32,000 bases of DNA from Candidatus Saccharimonadota bacterium (GCA_963718045.1 OY970350.1:510001-542000); one strand, 5' to 3'. Positions 3,336-25,550 are shown, numbered from the stretch's first letter. Notes: generated from the letters alone by a model not told the origin. Made by a program: numbers and translations.

Positions 3336-4237
3336 TATTTATCTTTCTTAGAGTCAACCTCTTCGTCTCCATATAGTGCCAGAAATAACTCTTCTAGCGA
3401 CGGTTCCCGGCTGAGCAGAGTTTTTGGATGAGCGCCGGCTAGCACTTTTAGTAGTGGTTCAATCGGTCCCCTAACCTGACAGGTTAATTGATGGCCGGTA
3501 ACAGTAACACTGCTGACTCCTTCAATGTGTTCCAGCTTAGGCGGTTCATCAAAAGTTGCCTCAACGGTGACTGCCGAAAGGTGCCGCATCTGTTGTAGCG
3601 TGCCTAGTTCAACTAATTTACCTTTTCTAAGTATGCCTATACGGTCACATAAGGATTCTGCCTCTTCCAGTATATGTGACGACAAAAATATTGTTTGACC
3701 GTTGGACTTGGCTTCCAATACACTTTGTTTAAAAGCTTGCTCCATTATCGGGTCAAGACCGCTGGTCGGTTCATCCATTATGAGCAGTTTAGCCTGGGTA
3801 GACAAAGCAGCAATTAAGTTTATTTTCTGCCTGTTGCCTTTTGAATAGGTCCTAACCTTTCTGTTAGGGTCAAAATCGAAACGCCTAAGAAGCTCTTTTT
3901 GATACTTAAGATCAACCCTGCCATGTGATTTCCCCAGTAAATGGAGAGTCTCAGCACCAGTCAAAGACGGCCAAAAGACTGATTCGCCAGGTACATAGGC
4001 CAGATTTTTGTGAGCTTCGACTTTATCTTTCTGACTGTCTAGGTCAAATATTTCGGCACTGCCGCTAGTCGGATGAATCAGCCCTAAGATTAATCTAATG
4101 GTCGTTGTTTTGCCGGCACCATTAGGTCCCAAGTAGCCAAGTATCTCCCCTACACTAACCTCCAGGTTTAACGGTGCTAAAGCAGTTAAGGAGCCGTAAT
4201 TTTTGGATAGATTTTTAGTTTTTACTGCTATTTCCAT
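3335..4237 (-). CDS. ABC transporter ATP-binding protein (DrrA-like)
   Basis: Walker A GPNGAGKTT, signature-like YSKGNRQK, Walker B LLIMDEPTSGLD, H-loop SSHIL. 300 aa. Confidence 0.92.
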   Translation of the reverse strand: MEIAVKTKNLSKNYGSLTALAPLNLEVSVGEILGYLGPNGAGKTTTIRLILGLIHPTSGSAEIFDLDSQKDKVEAHKNLAYVPGESVFWPSLTGAETLHLLGKSHGRVDLKYQKELLRRFDFDPNRKVRTYSKGNRQKINLIAALSTQAKLLIMDEPTSGLDPIMEQAFKQSVLEAKSNGQTIFLSSHILEEAESLCDRIGILRKGKLVELGTLQQMRHLSAVTVEATFDEPPKLEHIEGVSSVTVTGHQLTCQVRGPIEPLLKVLAGAHPKTLLSREPSLEELFLALYGDEEVDSKKDK

Positions 4238-5055: not shown

Positions 5056-5720
5056 GACTTTTGAGCCTCGCTAATACAAAATTCTAATAAGTCTGTCATT
5101 CTAGCTTTTCCCTCAGCAGAATAGGGCTTTGGCAGCCCATTAGCTACCAACCACCTATCAACATTTTCGGTTGAGGGTGGATTGTAAGATGGATGGACTG
5201 ACGTGTGGTGCTTAACTTTAAGTTGTACTTTAGGCTCGCTACCTTCTACGGTTTCATAAAAATTGAAAACAAACCCATCTTCATATAGAGAGTATTCATT
5301 ATCAATATAAGATGTATGCCTAAATAGTAACCAAGTATTCCTAATAGGATTATCACTACTCTCCACTAGGTTGAAGGGAGTATATATATGATCACTGACT
5401 ACCAGTTTGGGTGGAGCAACATGTTCAGGCCACCTTGAATTTGTAACAGTAGGCCATTCCTTTAGTGTTCCAATAGACGTGCTTCTATAATGATGCTTAA
5501 AGCTTTCAACAGGTGTACCCAATGCTCGCTTAACGACATTTGACCAAAAACTACCTTGCTGCCTTGGAGACCTAAAGAATACCTGTCCGTATTCTGGTAA
5601 TATCTGCACCCAACCCCGTTCCACGCTCTCATCATAATCTGGGGGCAATAATCTGTCGACATTAGCCCAGGCCTGCTTAATTTTGGCTGATGGGTCAGCG
5701 GGAAACTCTGGTGTGTTCAT
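5052..5720 (-). CDS. Hypothetical protein (222 aa, Trp/His/Pro-rich, no recognisable domain)
   Basis: Long uninterrupted ORF. Its stop overlaps the stop of the convergent 4297-5055 gene (CTAA). No motif recognised. Confidence 0.5.
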   Translation of the reverse strand: MNTPEFPADPSAKIKQAWANVDRLLPPDYDESVERGWVQILPEYGQVFFRSPRQQGSFWSNVVKRALGTPVESFKHHYRSTSIGTLKEWPTVTNSRWPEHVAPPKLVVSDHIYTPFNLVESSDNPIRNTWLLFRHTSYIDNEYSLYEDGFVFNFYETVEGSEPKVQLKVKHHTSVHPSYNPPSTENVDRWLVANGLPKPYSAEGKARMTDLLEFCISEAQKS

Positions 5721-5794
5721 ATTATACTACCATAACATAAGCAGTGTTATTTTGCAATACTGGAGATCCGCTAAGCTAGCTATATTTCTTAGTC

Positions 5795-6106
5795 TCAAGA
5801 CCCGCTTATTAACGCTTGTAGTTCATCCATAAGCCCATCCACTTCTTCTTCAGATAGGGTAGATGTTACCTGCAGTGTTCGCAGATAGCCATATATATCT
5901 TGAGATAGTCTTACTAACTCATTCTGGTTCGATGTAGGTTTACTATATTCACGAGCAAAGGCTAATGTACTCTTTTTTAAGTTATTTAAGACAATATTGT
6001 CTGTACTAGATGAGCCAATAATGCCTGCAGAAGCACCGCCCATGCGTGTTACGTTAATATTCATAACTCTCTCGATAAATAATGCTAGTTTTTCAGAGTT
6101 TGGCAT
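5795..6106 (-). CDS. Hypothetical protein (103 aa)
   Basis: ORF on the same strand as the lectin-CHAP gene and 111 nt downstream of it. No signal peptide or recognisable motif. Confidence 0.42.
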   Translation of the reverse strand: MPNSEKLALFIERVMNINVTRMGGASAGIIGSSSTDNIVLNNLKKSTLAFAREYSKPTSNQNELVRLSQDIYGYLRTLQVTSTLSEEEVDGLMDELQALISGS

Positions 6107-6217
6107 GGCTAAATTATATCAAAGAAGCGCGTATTAATTCTGTTTAGTCAAAAGTGTAATAAGGGACTACCTTGGACTAGAGCTTACTACTTGATGTTAA
6201 CTAACTGTCTCCCTTCC

Positions 6218-7252
6218 TTAGGTTGAAGAGTTGGGTGACATATAGTACTCAAGCTGGCCCAAGGATGGCAGGTTGGTAGTAGTGTTAGCAGCCATATCAC
6301 CATTGCCGGTAGTCGGGTCAATTACTGCTGAGTTGCCATATATAAAAGTCGGGGTCTTACCGCTGCTAACCACAATTTCTACGTGACCACCAGGATAATC
6401 AAAATAGGCTACGTCCCCTGGCTGAGGAATATAGTCTGACGATGAATCAATTGTGAAGCCCTGGTTAACAATGTTGCTGGCAATGTTTTCATCCCAGCCG
6501 TTATACTCACCACTGCTAAATGGATAGCCTGCTTCCTTATAGACATAGCTGACAAAGTCAGCGCACCACTCCTCATAAGGTGCTCCGGCTGTGTATGTAT
6601 TGAGCAGTGCTTCATGGTTATTTGGTTGGCTGGTCCAGTTAACCCATTCTTTGATGGCATAGCAGGCCACCATCTGCCCTTGGCTGCCGATGCACGGGTA
6701 AGTGCCGTAATTAATGTTAGGTTTCCAGCTTTTACTATCAGACGTTAAACGGTCACAAGAAGTTAGAGTTAATTGTCCGCCTTGCTGAGCACTGCCAGCT
6801 GTTAGACAAAGACTCTTATCCGGATTTAAAAAGCTAGTGTCGTCTCTTAGCCAGACCTGATCAGCGCCGTTATTGCAGCTGTTGATGGTGATCTTTGTAT
6901 CTGAGGAGGCCGTCAGACACATATCTTTATCATGGATAATCTGGGTTAGATTTACCTGCCAGTCCTGGGCAGCGGAGTTATTACAGGGCCACAAATCTAC
7001 CTGGTTGCCTTCGACCAATTTTGATCTGTAGTCATCAAGACAGTAACCTGACCAGCCAGATTTTATGGGACTGCCCGGTGCATTGGCGTGAGAAATGCCA
7101 AGAAACAGCAGGCTGAATATACCGGCGAGGGCCACGATAACCGCCAACATAGAAGTGAGGCGGTACTTCTTTAGAAATGATATATTTGGTTGTTTTAGCT
7201 CTTTGGGCCGTTTATATGTCCGGTGAACCGAGCTTACTTCTCGCATATTCAT
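6218..7252 (-). CDS. Secreted ricin-type beta-trefoil lectin + CHAP-domain peptidoglycan hydrolase
   Basis: N-terminal signal/anchor (MLAVIVALAGIFSLLFLGISHANA). Three Cys-bracketed QxW-type subrepeats (C..LWPC..AQDWQV, CL..INSC..DQVWL, CL..LTSC..SKSWK). C-terminal CHAP motifs with catalytic Cys (EEWCADFVSYVYKEAG) and His (GGHVEIVV). Confidence 0.82.
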   Translation of the reverse strand: MNMREVSSVHRTYKRPKELKQPNISFLKKYRLTSMLAVIVALAGIFSLLFLGISHANAPGSPIKSGWSGYCLDDYRSKLVEGNQVDLWPCNNSAAQDWQVNLTQIIHDKDMCLTASSDTKITINSCNNGADQVWLRDDTSFLNPDKSLCLTAGSAQQGGQLTLTSCDRLTSDSKSWKPNINYGTYPCIGSQGQMVACYAIKEWVNWTSQPNNHEALLNTYTAGAPYEEWCADFVSYVYKEAGYPFSSGEYNGWDENIASNIVNQGFTIDSSSDYIPQPGDVAYFDYPGGHVEIVVSSGKTPTFIYGNSAVIDPTTGNGDMAANTTTNLPSLGQLEYYMSPNSST

Positions 7253-7407
7253 GACTCGATCTTATATGTCCATGATTAAACTAAGCTGTAGTCGAAGTTT
7301 TTATTTTTGAGGGACAAACAATATTATATAACGAACTGGCAAGCGATGAAAAGTTATTCTTAGGTTAAATTAAATAACATAAAATATGCCCTTGCCTTAA
7401 TTAGAAC

Positions 7408-7875
7408 TTATTTCACTATGTTTTGGCTGAGAGCTATCTTAAAAGATTTATTGAACTGCGAGTGCAGGGGTTTAGGCAAATTTTTTGAAGTAAACCAGTC
7501 GATTTCTTCTATCTTATGAGGTTCGCCAATTTTCACCTTATCTGGATCAACTTTAACAGCGTGTATGATAGCTATCCAATGAGTTGGCTGGCCATTCAGC
7601 TCTCTGAAAGCGTCATAGACAGTTAAAAACTTAATCTCCAGCGGTTCGGTAACTAATTCTTCCATTATTTCTCGCTTGATAGCATCTTCAATTGGTTCGC
7701 CAAATTCAATGGCACCGCCGCCAACATCCCAACTCCCCTGTTCATCGCGGGCTTTTTTGCCTCTCTTTTGGAGCAATATGCGTCCCTTGCCGTCATGGAT
7801 AATAAAAGAGGCTGAAATACCGATATGATCTACTCCCCGTCTTAAGTCAGTCTTTTTGTTTGCCACTTTAACCAT
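7408..7875 (-). CDS. NUDIX hydrolase
   Basis: Nudix box GGGAIEFGEPIEDAIKREIMEELV. 155 aa. Confidence 0.85.
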   Translation of the reverse strand: MVKVANKKTDLRRGVDHIGISASFIIHDGKGRILLQKRGKKARDEQGSWDVGGGAIEFGEPIEDAIKREIMEELVTEPLEIKFLTVYDAFRELNGQPTHWIAIIHAVKVDPDKVKIGEPHKIEEIDWFTSKNLPKPLHSQFNKSFKIALSQNIVK

Positions 7876-7920
7876 GGTTCATATTATATAACGCCACGAG
7901 GTATAATATGGGAATAAGCA

Positions 7921-8361
7921 ATGGCTGGCAGTAAACCAAAAAACAGTTTCGAAGAAAAACACTTGGAGAGAATATTTCCTAGTTGGTACACCATACTTTA
8001 TGGTGCCGCCTGCGGTTTCTTAATACCCTGGACAATATCCATCGCTATTATCCTGCCGCCTCATTATGTTTCTAACCACTGGGACGCAGCCTGGGTCGGT
8101 TTTGACGCTTTTCAATGTGTACTTTTTGCTCTAACTGCCTATTTAACCTTTAAACATTCTATCTGGACTGCTCTAACCTCAGCCATGCTCGGTACTACTC
8201 TAGTAGTTGATGCTTGGTTTGATATTATGACCGCCAGAACTACAAAAGATATTAGATTGGCTATCGTTGAAGCAGTGATTGTTGAAGTTCCTCTAGCTCT
8301 TATCTCCTTCTATTTGTCGCGCCGTATATTTAATGGAATCCATAAAAATTACACAGATTAA
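7921..8361 (+). CDS. Small integral membrane protein (about 4 TM), unknown function
   Basis: 146-aa hydrophobic ORF. A TATAAT box sits at about 7906-7911 upstream. Its stop codon (8359-8361) lies inside the left inverted repeat of the adjacent IS element. Confidence 0.55.
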   Translation: MAGSKPKNSFEEKHLERIFPSWYTILYGAACGFLIPWTISIAIILPPHYVSNHWDAAWVGFDAFQCVLFALTAYLTFKHSIWTALTSAMLGTTLVVDAWFDIMTARTTKDIRLAIVEAVIVEVPLALISFYLSRRIFNGIHKNYTD

Positions 8362-8393
8362 AATATTTCCCGCCTACATACATTACAGACCCA
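8357..8393. repeat. Left terminal inverted repeat (IR-L) of the IS1595-family element
   Basis: attaaaatatttcccgcctacatacattacagaccca equals the reverse complement of 10471-10507 with 4 mismatches. Confidence 0.75.
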
Positions 8394-8403
8394 AAGGGAT
8401 TAA

Positions 8404-8880
8404 ATGACGTTATCTAGTGTTACAATTTATGATATGGATGCAAGCGGTCAACCCTTAGAGTTAAGAACTATGGTTGATACTATTTCGTTGTCGCTTAGCA
8501 CTTATTCAATAACGATGCCAACAGCTGATAGTGGATTAAACAATCTTAGTATTTCGATTAGCCCAAAAGGTATCGACCACTCTAGCCCTCATCAAGCAGA
8601 TAATCACCCGACGGTTTACTATAACCTTGGTTATGGCATTTTGAACGCTGATATTGCATACCCCACACCATCTCAGACAGAAAGTTCGCTTTATTTACAA
8701 AAATATGGTAATGTAATAGTGTACGACAAGTACGATTTTTTTGAACTTTTGACGGACGTTCCATATTTAGCCGAAAACTATCCACATCAAACTATGCGTG
8801 CTGTTGTTTTCTCGCCCTTCAATAATACCGTTAGCACAGTTAGAAGCTACTACTTTATAAGAAGATATGAAGATGAATAA
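8404..8880 (+). CDS. Hypothetical protein, IS passenger gene 1 (158 aa)
   Basis: ORF preceded by an SD-like aaaggga at the inner edge of IR-L. It overlaps the next ORF by 14 nt. No recognisable domain. Confidence 0.5.
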   Translation: MTLSSVTIYDMDASGQPLELRTMVDTISLSLSTYSITMPTADSGLNNLSISISPKGIDHSSPHQADNHPTVYYNLGYGILNADIAYPTPSQTESSLYLQKYGNVIVYDKYDFFELLTDVPYLAENYPHQTMRAVVFSPFNNTVSTVRSYYFIRRYEDE

Positions 8881-9160
8881 ATCTGCCCCGAACACAATTA
8901 ATGACTGGACTATTACATACAGCGAGTATGTTGATACTTTGCATGTGTTTGATAAGTCAATAAACAAAAAATCCAACAAGGAGCTACAAAAAATAAAAGC
9001 AGGACATGTGGTTTATATTTTTGATAAGAATACACACTCGCCTTTAATGCTGGAGGTTGATAATGCTACCCACAACTTCGGTGACGTTGATAAAATGGAT
9101 AAAAAGCTTATAATTCAAAAGGTAAAAGAATTGGTAAATAACTATGGCAGCACAGAATAA
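8867..9160 (+). CDS. Hypothetical small protein, IS passenger gene 2 (DUF2283/YuzE-like at motif level)
   Basis: 97 aa. The pattern WTITYSEYVDTLHVF...GHVVYIFDKN...LMLEVDNA resembles the ITYD..D.LYI...DyD..G.i.GIEi.nA layout of DUF2283 proteins. It overlaps both neighbours. Confidence 0.45.
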   Translation: MKMNKSAPNTINDWTITYSEYVDTLHVFDKSINKKSNKELQKIKAGHVVYIFDKNTHSPLMLEVDNATHNFGDVDKMDKKLIIQKVKELVNNYGSTE

Positions 9161-9422
9161 ACCAGTTAAACTATTATCCAGCGTCCCCGCAGTAGCAGTA
9201 GACGGTCATGGTATAGGGATAGACCCGAATACTGGTGTTGGCAATTTAGTCTTTATACAACTTGTAATGTCTCAGACGAAAGAACAGCCAAAAGATAAAG
9301 AATTAGAGGGCAATGTAGTTTCTAGCGTAAGATTAAGCCTAGAACAACTTGAAGGACTCAATACTGCTCTTACTAATGCTATAAAAAATTACAAAAACAC
9401 CAAAAAAGAAACAAAGAAGTAA
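9144..9422 (+). CDS. Hypothetical small protein, IS passenger gene 3 (DUF3467-like at motif level)
   Basis: 92 aa. The C-terminal VVSSVRLSLEQLEGLNTALTNAIKNYKN resembles the conserved C-terminal helix region of DUF3467. It overlaps the previous ORF by 17 nt. Confidence 0.4.
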   Translation: MAAQNKPVKLLSSVPAVAVDGHGIGIDPNTGVGNLVFIQLVMSQTKEQPKDKELEGNVVSSVRLSLEQLEGLNTALTNAIKNYKNTKKETKK

Positions 9423-9547
9423 CTATTATAGTTATTTCTTGGGTGGTGGAGCGGTTGCGATTTTCTTTAAAGCACGTTTAAAGGTAGTGTCTATTATGTA
9501 AGGCTTTTCACGCTTGAGTTTCTTAGCTGTCACATAACCATTTTAGC

Positions 9548-10435
9548 CTATAAGTTTCTTGTAAGGCAAATGTCGGCCGTTAATTCTAGTAAGCCAGTCA
9601 TCAAAACGCTCACCGCCGTCAACTCCCTAGTGTTCCAGCGATAGCTGTATTCCTTAACATAGAATTGAAGGTGTTTGGGGCTTACGCCGACATAGATGGC
9701 GTCAATTCCGTTCTTTAGATGACTCCAGTATCCCTCAATAGTGTTAGTATGTACTACCCCTTTAGCATATTCACCTTTAGAATGATTGACCCTGTAGTGT
9801 TCATATCCCATGTCAGGGATGAGGTGCTTGTACATAGGGAAGTAATCAGTATGAATAGTAGCTGTAGGGCTTACTGACTTTCTAATCACAGGTTCAACTG
9901 TACCACCAGCTACAAAAGGCATAACTTGAGCCTTTACGCTGCCACCCCTCTCAACCATACCGAATACTGGTACTTTAGTAGTGCCACGACCTGCAACTCT
10001 CTTACCAGCCTTACGATTACCCTCATAAGTCTCATCAATCTCTACAATGCCATCTAAGGGTTTCTCAACGCCATATTCCATAGCGTAACGTATACGGTGA
10101 AGTATGAACCATGCTGTCTTTTGGGTAACATCTAGATACTCAGCCAGTCTTATTGAGCTTATACCCTTCTTTTGTGAGGTTAGAAGGTATACGGCCATGA
10201 ACCACTTTTGTAGTGAGATATGGCTATCGGTGAAGATAGTACCGACTTTAGCTGTAAACTTCTTCCTACAGTCTTTACACTTGAATAATAGGCCATCTTT
10301 AAACTTATATGTATCTACTATGCCACAATGAGGGCAGTAACGGCCATTGAACCATCTAGTCTTTTCGAGGTATACTAGGCACGATTTCTCATCAGGAAAT
10401 TCTTTGTAAAAATTAACTAAATTTAATCCCTTCAT
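9548..10435 (-). CDS. IS1595 family transposase (N-terminal zinc ribbon + ISXO2-like DDE domain)
   Basis: CPHCG...CKDCRKKFTAKVGTIFTDSHISLQKWFMAVYLLTSQKKGISSIRLAEYLDVTQKTAWFILHRIRYAM is the hallmark N-terminus of IS1595/ISXO2-like transposases. 295 aa and apparently intact. Confidence 0.9.
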   Translation of the reverse strand: MKGLNLVNFYKEFPDEKSCLVYLEKTRWFNGRYCPHCGIVDTYKFKDGLLFKCKDCRKKFTAKVGTIFTDSHISLQKWFMAVYLLTSQKKGISSIRLAEYLDVTQKTAWFILHRIRYAMEYGVEKPLDGIVEIDETYEGNRKAGKRVAGRGTTKVPVFGMVERGGSVKAQVMPFVAGGTVEPVIRKSVSPTATIHTDYFPMYKHLIPDMGYEHYRVNHSKGEYAKGVVHTNTIEGYWSHLKNGIDAIYVGVSPKHLQFYVKEYSYRWNTRELTAVSVLMTGLLELTADICLTRNL

Positions 10436-10470
10436 TATGAACCTTTCTACCTCTATTCTATCAAATTATT

Positions 10471-10507
10471 CTGGGTCTGTCAAGTATATAAGCGGGAAAT
10501 ATTTTAA
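10471..10507. repeat. Right terminal inverted repeat (IR-R) of the IS1595-family element
   Basis: tgggtctgtcaagtatataagcgggaaatattttaat. Its reverse complement matches 8357-8393. Confidence 0.75.
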
Positions 10508-10579
10508 TAAATATTATTGACTGTATAACTAATATGTGGCATATTTTGGGTATATAAAGAGATTACTAGGGGAGAACTC

Positions 10580-11263
10580 ATGGTGCCTACGGCGCTACTA
10601 ATTGAAGATAACAGGGCGGTCAACGAGACATTGTCGGCCGCACTTAATAAAAGTTACAATTTAATATCTGTTGGTCTAGGCAATGAGGGGTTAAGTTTAA
10701 TTAAAAGTGAGACGCCAGAGTTAATAATCTTAGATCTAAATTTACCTGATCGATCAGGTCTGAGTATCTGCCGTGAAGCAAGAAAAATTGGCGTTAAGGC
10801 GCCAATTTTAATAGTCAGCGGTGACAGTAGATTATCTACTAAGCTAGAGCTATTTAGCGCCGGAGCTGACGATTACATTGTTAAGCCTTTTTCTTTGGGT
10901 GAACTGGAAGCTAGACTAAAAGCGCTACTAAGGCGCTTAAATACCTATAAGCAGATGTTATCCAGTCCCCGGACCCCTTCGTTAATCTTAGACAGGGCAA
11001 GTGAAAGTGTCAGCCGAGAAGGTGGTGAGCCGATTAGTTTAAGGCACAAAGAGTATGCCATATTGGACTATCTCATACAAAATGCCGGACACTGCGTAAG
11101 CCGGTCAAAGTTAGTTAGCCAAGTTTGGAAAAACAACTCCAAGCCATGGTCTAATACGATCGATGTTCATGTTAACAGCCTGAGAGATAAGATAGATAAA
11201 CCATACCCTAAGCCTTTAATTAGTACTGTGCACGGTGTAGGTTACAGATTAGAGAATAGGTAA
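10580..11263 (+). CDS. OmpR-family response regulator (REC + winged-helix DNA-binding domain)
   Basis: Receiver motifs (LIEDN, ELIILDLNLPDRSG, ILIVSG, KPF) and a C-terminal trans_reg_C pattern (LRHKEYAILDYL...IDVHVNSLRDKI...TVHGVGYRL). SD aggggag upstream. Confidence 0.92.
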   Translation: MVPTALLIEDNRAVNETLSAALNKSYNLISVGLGNEGLSLIKSETPELIILDLNLPDRSGLSICREARKIGVKAPILIVSGDSRLSTKLELFSAGADDYIVKPFSLGELEARLKALLRRLNTYKQMLSSPRTPSLILDRASESVSREGGEPISLRHKEYAILDYLIQNAGHCVSRSKLVSQVWKNNSKPWSNTIDVHVNSLRDKIDKPYPKPLISTVHGVGYRLENR

Positions 11264-25386: not shown

Positions 25387-25462
25387 TGGTGGAGCATGGC
25401 AGAATCGAACTGCCAATCTCTGCAATGCGAATGCAGCGCTCTACCAACTGAGCTAATGCCCC
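25387..25462 (-). tRNA. tRNA-Ala (anticodon CGC), CCA encoded
   Basis: The reverse complement GGGGCATTAGCTCAGTTGGTAGAGCGCTGCATTCGCATTGCAGAGATTGGCAGTTCGATTCTGCCATGCTCCACCA folds as a 76-nt cloverleaf with a G3:U70 Ala identity pair and anticodon loop TTCGCAT. Confidence 0.92.
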
Positions 25463-25473
25463 GTATTTCAGTA

Positions 25474-25550
25474 TGGTGGAGCATATCGGGATCGAACCGA
25501 TGACCTCATCCGTGCCACGGATGCGCGCTAGCCAGCTGCGCCAATGCCCC
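25474..25550 (-). tRNA. tRNA-Ala (anticodon GGC), CCA encoded
   Basis: The reverse complement GGGGCATTGGCGCAGCTGGCTAGCGCGCATCCGTGGCACGGATGAGGTCATCGGTTCGATCCCGATATGCTCCACCA folds as a 77-nt cloverleaf with G3:U70 and anticodon loop GTGGCAC. Confidence 0.9.

Follow-up and report, generated by a model that had tools for sequence, protein, structure and literature searches.

A conserved three-gene cargo in a transporter insertion sequence of the IS1595 family

To our knowledge, no mobile elements smaller than transporter insertion sequences (IS) are known to carry cargo, and only a few of these cargoes are understood. Toxin-antitoxin (TA) pairs reside inside transposons of the Tn3 family, and tripartite toxin-antitoxin-chaperone (TAC) systems have also been described. 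We have analyzed a 32,000-nucleotide (nt) stretch of DNA from a Candidatus Saccharimonadota bacterium (GCA_963718045.1 OY970350.1:510001-542000; the window below), in which three small overlapping genes, P1, P2 and P3 (the trio), lie together with a transposase gene inside an IS1595-family element. Transporter IS are a described class, reported to be limited to the IS1595 and IS66 families (see Siguier, Gagnevin & Chandler 2009).

The window element resembles transporter IS of the ISPna2+/ISNwi1+ type: each has one DDE transposase, with a zinc ribbon at its N terminus, passenger genes within terminal inverted repeats (IRs), 8-bp target duplications and an overall size of about 2.1-2.8 kb. The window element differs in that its trio is a specific conserved module of three families, found with diverged transposases and apparently only in genomes resembling those of the candidate phyla radiation (CPR), and in that the trio seems to have its own conserved extended -10 element and leaderless start just inside the left repeat (IR-L). 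An element from a Polaromonas metagenome-assembled genome (MAG), locus L023 in our numbering of related loci, also has two or three cargo genes beside a transposase (48% identical to that of the window), perfect IRs and a length of ~2.4 kb (128-2553). Its cargo, however, is recognizable, consisting of a D12 Dam methyltransferase (3.3e-60) and a PD-(D/E)XK nuclease (3.2e-36), and has the same orientation as the transposase; the trio and its transposase are convergent. Tn3-borne TA pairs and TAC systems would share with the trio small overlapping genes on a transposon, transposase-independent persistence and stoichiometric expression of three components, but the trio lacks a recognizable toxin fold, catalytic motif or DNA-binding antitoxin domain, and no SecB-like chaperone signature was detected in it.

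The features of the window element are as follows (ORF, open reading frame; aa, amino acids).

8369-10496: IS1595-family element, 2128 bp, enclosing P1-P2-P3 and the convergent transposase
8369-8393, + strand: IR-L, CCCGCCTACATACATTACAGACCCA (repeat search)
10472-10496, - strand: right inverted repeat (IR-R), reverse complement CCCGCTTATATACTTGACAGACCCA (repeat search and comparison with relatives)
8361-8368: left 8-bp target duplication, AAATATTT, palindromic (direct reading of the sequence)
10497-10504: right 8-bp target duplication, AAATATTT (direct reading of the sequence)
8404-8880, + strand: P1, 158 aa from the first ATG (ORF listing and family homologues)
8867-9160, + strand: P2, 97 aa, or 95 aa if the ATG at 8873 is used (ORF listing and family homologues)
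9144-9422, + strand: P3, 92 aa (ORF listing and family homologues)
9548-10435, - strand: IS1595-family transposase, 295 aa, convergent with the trio (Pfam and NCBIfam)

As can be seen, P1 and P2 overlap by 14 nt and P2 and P3 by 17 nt. The coordinates, the common strand and both overlaps are those given by the original prediction, which had been made from the sequence alone, and the purine-rich AAGGGA (8394-8399) is indeed located at the inner edge of IR-L, where a Shine-Dalgarno sequence had been placed. The transposase matches Pfam DDE_Tnp_IS1595 (PF12762, 2.8e-35), the zinc ribbon PF12760 (1.3e-12) and NCBIfam transpos_IS1595 (4.9e-62; 209 bits against a cut-off of 75).

The repeat search detected a 37-nt inverted repeat (8357-8393 and 10472-10508, 89% complementary) that encloses all four genes. 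The outer 12 nt of each arm are not part of the element, being made up of the 8-bp target duplication and 4 nt of palindromic target; the repeat finder stretched the arms to 37 nt because the target, ATTAAAATATTTTAAT, was itself originally a 16-nt palindrome. The boundaries were set by a rule taken from related elements, 25-26-nt IRs flanked by perfect 8-bp direct repeats, and AAATATTT is the longest direct repeat that touches both ends of the window element. Since it is palindromic, this duplication is ambiguous when taken alone; those of the related elements L028, L033 and L037 are unambiguous. The unoccupied target site would read ...GATTAAAATATTTTAATAAATATT... The insertion occurred directly after the stop codon of an upstream gene for a 146-aa membrane protein, so that the first base of the left duplication (8361) is the final base of the TAA of that gene. 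The right-end sequence, on the IR-R side, is conserved in loci L019 and L025. A 19-nt match between 8394-8412 and 10414-10432 was rejected as not collinear with the IRs and probably due to chance. An Rfam search of positions 8200-10700 retrieved no RNA family.

Three related elements that carry the trio are intact.

L028, 7493-10019: element of 2527 bp, target duplication ATAAATAA
L033, 7232-9745: element of 2514 bp, target duplication TATTTCTT
L037: element with 25-nt IRs (one mismatch), target duplication CATAATAG

The 8-bp duplications of all three are perfect, and the trio is located inside the repeats in these elements as it is in the window. The tips of the window element (CCCGC..) differ from the GG.. 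tips of the other three. The window, L028 and L033 differ in the host genes that flank the element. Near-identical copies within the L037 lineage carry at least six different left flanks joined to one common tip, GGTGGTTATACC..., from which it follows that the whole unit has transposed recently. The left tip, as GGC(A/G)ACTATCCC, is also seen in loci L027 and L034, a short distance upstream of P1. We conclude that IR-L, P1-P2-P3, the convergent transposase and IR-R insert as one piece with 8-bp duplications. The actively spreading L037 lineage has, in addition, a fourth plus-strand gene between P3 and the transposase (L037 4267-4719, L039 1195-1761), which codes for 150 or 188 aa and has a weak PH-like Pfam match only, and a 93-nt leader with TGGTATAAT upstream of P1.

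The window copy occupies one and the same site, as a single copy, in 14 out of 14 contigs of the species, and look-ups of the window genes and their neighbors for an empty site or a second copy returned the same context with every match. Frame analysis of the region ~9545-9630 revealed that its transposase is frameshifted near 9620-9630, with the C-terminal tail affected: the window encodes the tail that relatives conserve (..ERF..W....GR.L.YKKL..) in a different frame, as GERFDDWLTRINGRHLPYKKLIG followed by a stop codon (..ERF..W....GRHLPYKKLIG). The frameshifted tail and the single fixed site together suggest that the window copy is no longer mobile.

An exhaustive HMMER search of 1.84 billion representative proteins, in which the three proteins were concatenated as the query, returned 58 matches that split cleanly into P1, P2 and P3 families (best E-values of 2.5e-13, 3.3e-16 and 1.2e-17, respectively). 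Judged by sequence similarity, each protein of the trio founds a small family; no paralogy among the three families was found by hhalign. A word-indexed search had given self matches only for all three proteins, and the reading of the trio as orphan genes that went with it was overturned by the exhaustive search.

All fetched loci were annotated with hidden Markov models of the three families. Any locus with one member was found to carry the complete P1-P2-P3 set, with the gene order unchanged and the genes overlapping, up to the limits of its contig. The loci fall into ten independent lineages (the window, L027, L028/29, L030, L031, L032, L033, L034, L035/36 and L037-46). Of the seven lineages with enough downstream sequence, five (the window, L028, L033, L034 and the L037 lineage) have a convergent IS1595 transposase after the trio. 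The original prediction had proposed a cargo operon on a transposon and had made it dependent on recurrence of the three genes in other genomes. This recurrence is clear: the trio is co-inherited as an overlapping transposon cargo operon, its members being together in 10/10 lineages and, in the window, L028, L033 and L037, inside IS1595-type IRs with 8-bp duplications.

The distribution of the families appears to be narrow. No members were found by tblastn in phage and plasmid collections, and none were present in viral contigs scanned with the P2 and P3 profiles; the metagenome profile scan was performed with a reduced alignment, two fuller alignments being too diverse. A search of the literature found no paper mentioning such a three-gene module. 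The trio is apparently confined to very small CPR-like genomes, probably of Saccharibacteria/CPR, an assignment of hosts inferred from the closest transposase relative, which comes from a Saccharibacteria MAG, and from neighboring genes such as those for a type IV secretion system pilin and TrbL.

Several lines of evidence indicate that the trio is cargo rather than transposition machinery. First, close relatives of the transposase occur without it: L019 (74% identity, Saccharibacteria MAG) and L020-L026 (42-58%) have no trio, and at least L021 and L023 among them keep clear IRs. Second, the trio survives loss of the transposase, since it is full length in L034, where only the last ~78 transposase residues are left, and in L035 and L030, where there is no trace of a transposase; in the window, too, it accompanies a transposase with a frameshifted tail. 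Third, the histories of the trio and the transposase disagree when their sequences are compared: L028 and L033 are 66% identical in the transposase and 25%, 34% and 56% identical in P1, P2 and P3, while the window and L028 are 37% identical in the transposase and 22%, 47% and 49% identical in P1, P2 and P3. Finally, the near-identical copies of the L037 lineage differ in the trio at 11 synonymous and 3 non-synonymous sites and, on this substitution pattern, the trio proteins are under purifying selection. The window element belongs to the transporter IS of the IS1595 family, and its cargo of three genes is conserved and under selection. Our overall reading, to which we assign as a whole a probability of about 0.5, is that the trio is a conserved passenger module of an IS1595-family transporter IS lineage in very small genomes, with a promoter of its own, joint action of its proteins and a role in persistence or conflict apart from transposition.

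The first three of these observations are also difficult to reconcile with an accessory or regulatory complex of the transposon, i.e., an inhibitor or activator of transposition, a factor for target selection or immunity, or a protein complex binding the DNA ends (compare IstB of IS21 and the extra ORFs of IS66), and profile searches detected no DNA-binding or ATPase domain in the trio. Such a complex would account for the position of the trio next to the convergent transposase in most lineages with adequate downstream sequence and for the layout with IR-L abutting P1, which is common to elements whose transposases are 33-45% identical. The Lys-rich tail of P3 could bind nucleic acid, and no function of benefit to the host is recognizable. 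On balance, we regard an accessory complex as unlikely, even though it is the best of the alternatives to a passenger module.

Other genes are present in relatives that lack the trio. The L021 element (5897-8260, ~2.4 kb, perfect IRs), the transposase of which is, like that of L023, 48% identical to the window transposase, carries two ORFs, one of 194 aa and one of 157 aa, the latter having zinc-ribbon-like motifs rich in Cys. In L019, a 139-aa PadR-like winged-helix ORF (3672-4091, - strand; E 4.7e-4) is found at the trio position, convergent with the transposase; no far-end inverted repeat of L019 was found within the contig, which stops first.

We next consider how the trio may be expressed. 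One feature has to be added to the list:

8418-8426, + strand: predicted extended -10 promoter, TGTTACAAT, TGnTACAAT (cross-lineage conservation)

The ATG of P1 Met11 (8434) is located 7 nt downstream of the -10 box. The block GTTACAATTTAT is identical in the window, L027, L028 and L033, the P1 proteins of which are just 22-36% identical, and the arrangement TGTTACAAT-TTATnnT-ATG is identical or nearly so in the same four loci. The same spacing is present in L034 (TGTTATAAT) and L035 (TGTTATACT). TGnTAnnnT followed by 6-7 nt and an in-frame ATG is found in six out of nine lineages, with a chance expectation, estimated from shuffled sequences, of at most about 1% per lineage. P1 lengths are also more uniform over the lineages, at 136-152 aa, when Met11-type starts are used. 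It appears from this conservation that the trio is probably transcribed from an extended -10 promoter of its own, next to the inner end of IR-L, giving a leaderless mRNA from Met11 (8434) and a P1 of 148 aa. The earlier suggestion of expression by read-through from the flanking gene or by the IR itself does not agree with a conserved extended -10 element inside the transposon, downstream of IR-L. Transcripts that read through from the upstream gene could still be translated from the ATG at 8404, which has AAGGGA upstream of it; a terminator scan found no terminator between that gene and P1.

Translation of such a leaderless mRNA would be coupled by the overlapping stop and start codons, so that three small soluble proteins would be made in fixed proportions and would act together, probably as a complex. 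We consider this scheme as a whole, from the trio's own promoter to joint action, somewhat more likely than not. A near-consensus σ70-like site (9087-9114, + strand; TTGATA-16-TATAAT, 11/12 matches) falls within the 3′-terminal part of P2 and 30 nt ahead of the P3 start; P3 might have an internal promoter here, or the site may be a chance occurrence in AT-rich DNA.

P1 is acidic (pI 4.6-6.3), and its AlphaFold model, built from the family alignment, is of the alpha+beta type (pLDDT 81, pTM 0.77). No match to P1 was found in Pfam, PHROGs, NCBIfam, PADLOC or PDB sequence profiles, and the original description of P1 as matching nothing holds at the sequence level. A Foldseek search of the PDB with the P1 model, a check that had been proposed earlier, gave no fold neighbor (best E 0.23, TM < 0.3). 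Against viral structures (BFVD), Foldseek matched the model to a PolyVal ADP-ribosyltransferase (E 0.04, probability 0.98, TM 0.47), the other top viral matches being large polyvalent or minor-capsid proteins. The only conserved residues in the family alignment are His59, Ser90 and Gly102, and neither a Glu nor an Arg is invariant. The likeness of P1 to ADP-ribosyltransferases was not accepted as more than a lead, since the catalytic residues (R-S-E or H-Y-E) are not conserved. No ADP-ribosyltransferase is among the PDB matches. In the metagenomic locus L006, which comes from the same species and is 99.9% identical over 2.7 kb, an indel truncates P1 to 151 aa (5472-5927), while P2, P3 and the transposase are unchanged.

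The P2 model (pLDDT 86) consists of a five-stranded beta domain followed by a C-terminal helix. The assignment of P2 to DUF2283/YuzE (PF10049) is not supported, since 0/32 family members match at E <= 1. The top Foldseek match of the model is the YtpR chain 9a77_B (E 1.9e-3, TM 0.59, 22% identity), from an entry that is an integrative model and not an experimental structure. The predicted fold of P2 resembles the N-terminal domain of YtpR, its only meaningful neighbor. An hhalign comparison of the P2 profile (35-72) with YtpR (21-58) gave an E of 0.026, which lends weak support.

P3 ends in a Lys-rich C-terminal tail, and was originally thought to have a DUF3467-like C-terminal helix. The likeness is weak yet recurs in the family, where 4/18 members match DUF3467 (PF11950; best E 5.4e-4), the only Pfam family matched by more than two members; the window protein itself falls below the cut-off (profile positions 48-86 of 92; E 0.033, 14.7 bits against 25). 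For both P2 and P3, then, the likeness to the reference family, the YtpR N-terminal domain or DUF3467, is below family thresholds, and both reference families are themselves without known function. The PDB profile search gave nothing significant for any of the trio families, and the same holds for Pfam, PHROGs, NCBIfam and PADLOC, whether searched with the window proteins or with all family members.

What could a cargo of this kind do? We propose that the trio is not involved in transposition chemistry, and that its value is independent of the transposase and lies in persistence or conflict, as an addiction-like or an immunity/defense-like system. The effector would be P1, which is the largest member and alone has the size of an enzyme, and P2 and P3 would be its partners or neutralizers. 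Our confidence in this role is a little short of even. It is favored by the occurrence of the trio in mobile contexts only, by fast evolution under purifying selection and by survival without the transposase; the cargo slot of a related element (L023) holds a restriction-modification pair, and in L006, P1 is truncated while P2 and P3 are kept, which points in the same direction. A more specific version is possible but speculative. In it, the trio is a conflict system of three components that has not been described before, be it a toxin with two neutralizers or chaperones or a defense/anti-defense complex, and IS1595-type elements of CPR bacteria carry it to ensure that they themselves are kept in extremely reduced genomes. 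If it is correct, P1 would represent a new effector fold, possibly a degenerate one of the ADP-ribosyltransferase-like type.

Several facts weigh against the reading as it stands. No toxin, antitoxin, DNA-binding, defense or anti-defense model matches any member of the trio families: Pfam, NCBIfam and PADLOC gave no toxin or antitoxin match, and a scan of 9 P1, 32 P2 and 18 P3 members with the PADLOC-DB 2.0 defense models gave no consistent match. P1 is without an invariant acidic or basic catalytic residue, only His, Ser and Gly being kept. Just one locus, L035, is located beside a known defense system, a cyclic-oligonucleotide-based antiphage signaling system (CBASS). The leaderless-mRNA model is based on sequence conservation. 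Lastly, the trio has for a long time accompanied IS1595 transposases that are only 33-45% identical to each other, and it could therefore have a role in transposition. L035 (6956-10959) is the only long contig in which the trio is without a transposase; the genes after the trio there are LexA and an operon of the CBASS type (SMODS cyclase, bacterial HORMA, AAA/Trip13-like and CARF-domain proteins).

The resemblance of the P2 model to the N-terminal domain of YtpR, which is a tRNA-binding protein, raises a different explanation, namely that the trio serves ordinary host physiology, for example in connection with tRNA or translation, and hitch-hikes on the IS. Weak hhalign support, persistence of the trio without a transposase and the fixed position of the window copy, which is the same in all 14 contigs of the species, would all be in line with this. 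Housekeeping genes, however, are not expected mostly inside mobile elements, where the trio is found, nor in families that are extremely rare (58 representatives among 1.84 billion proteins), patchy and fast-evolving (22-56% identity); the YtpR likeness, moreover, concerns one small domain that itself has no known function. We consider a host-physiology role less likely still than an accessory complex. That the ORFs are chance frames in AT-rich DNA or functionless decayed remnants, as the initial lack of any database family match might have implied, is refuted for practical purposes by homologues down to E = 1e-17, a gene order kept in ten lineages, confident models and the 11:3 substitution pattern.

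Indeed, with homologues at E-values of 1e-13 to 1e-17, P1 and P2 models at pLDDT 81 and 86 and 11:3 synonymous to non-synonymous sites, P1, P2 and P3 are confirmed as genes. The remaining features of the window element concern the transposase side.

10455-10483, - strand: transposase promoter, TTGACA-17-TAGAAT with an upstream TG, 11/12 matches (promoter scan)
9432-9533, - strand: conserved small ORF of 33 aa, VTAKKLKREKPYIIDTTFKRALKKIATAPPPKK, a short distance downstream of the transposase (76% identity to an L019 ORF)

The -35 box of the transposase promoter is inside IR-R, and the promoter is conserved in L019. The reading frame of the small ORF is that of the ancestral stop codon of the transposase. 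The window, L019 (3341-3442), L028 and L032 each have, between trio and transposase, a Lys-rich ORF of 31-33 aa with the motif (T/F)FK(R/V)(A)LKK(I/V). In the window and L019, where these ORFs are 76% identical, they lie beyond the stop codon of the transposase and share the frame of its ancestral tail; one possibility, judging from this arrangement, is a stop-codon read-through product, and another is a separate small gene. In L028 (8535-8630, + strand) and L032 (~740-840, + strand), the other strand codes for a similar peptide, which follows P3 immediately, with an ATGA overlap.

Elsewhere in the window, a gene at 6218-7252 (- strand) encodes a secreted-looking protein of 344 aa with ricin-type beta-trefoil lectin and CHAP peptidase domains, a candidate cell-wall hydrolase that is noteworthy in an episymbiont-sized genome. 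Two tRNA-Ala genes, with anticodons CGC and GGC and 11 nt between them, are located at 25387-25550 (- strand).

What is new here is the identity and recurrence of this cargo, its promoter architecture and its apparent limit to CPR-like genomes. One cargo of three unannotated families recurs in diverged IS1595 elements, is selected and outlives the transposase. The hosts are apparently minimal-genome organisms, in which each retained gene needs explaining. The element is a compact and tractable test case, and it provides an annotation rule: P1-P2-P3 marks the left arm of this type of IS. Should the trio tune transposition after all, the IS1595 family would have its first accessory complex. If the trio is an addiction or conflict module, it would show how an IS can stabilize itself in CPR bacteria, and three families, one of them with an unassigned fold, would be added to the conflict repertoire.

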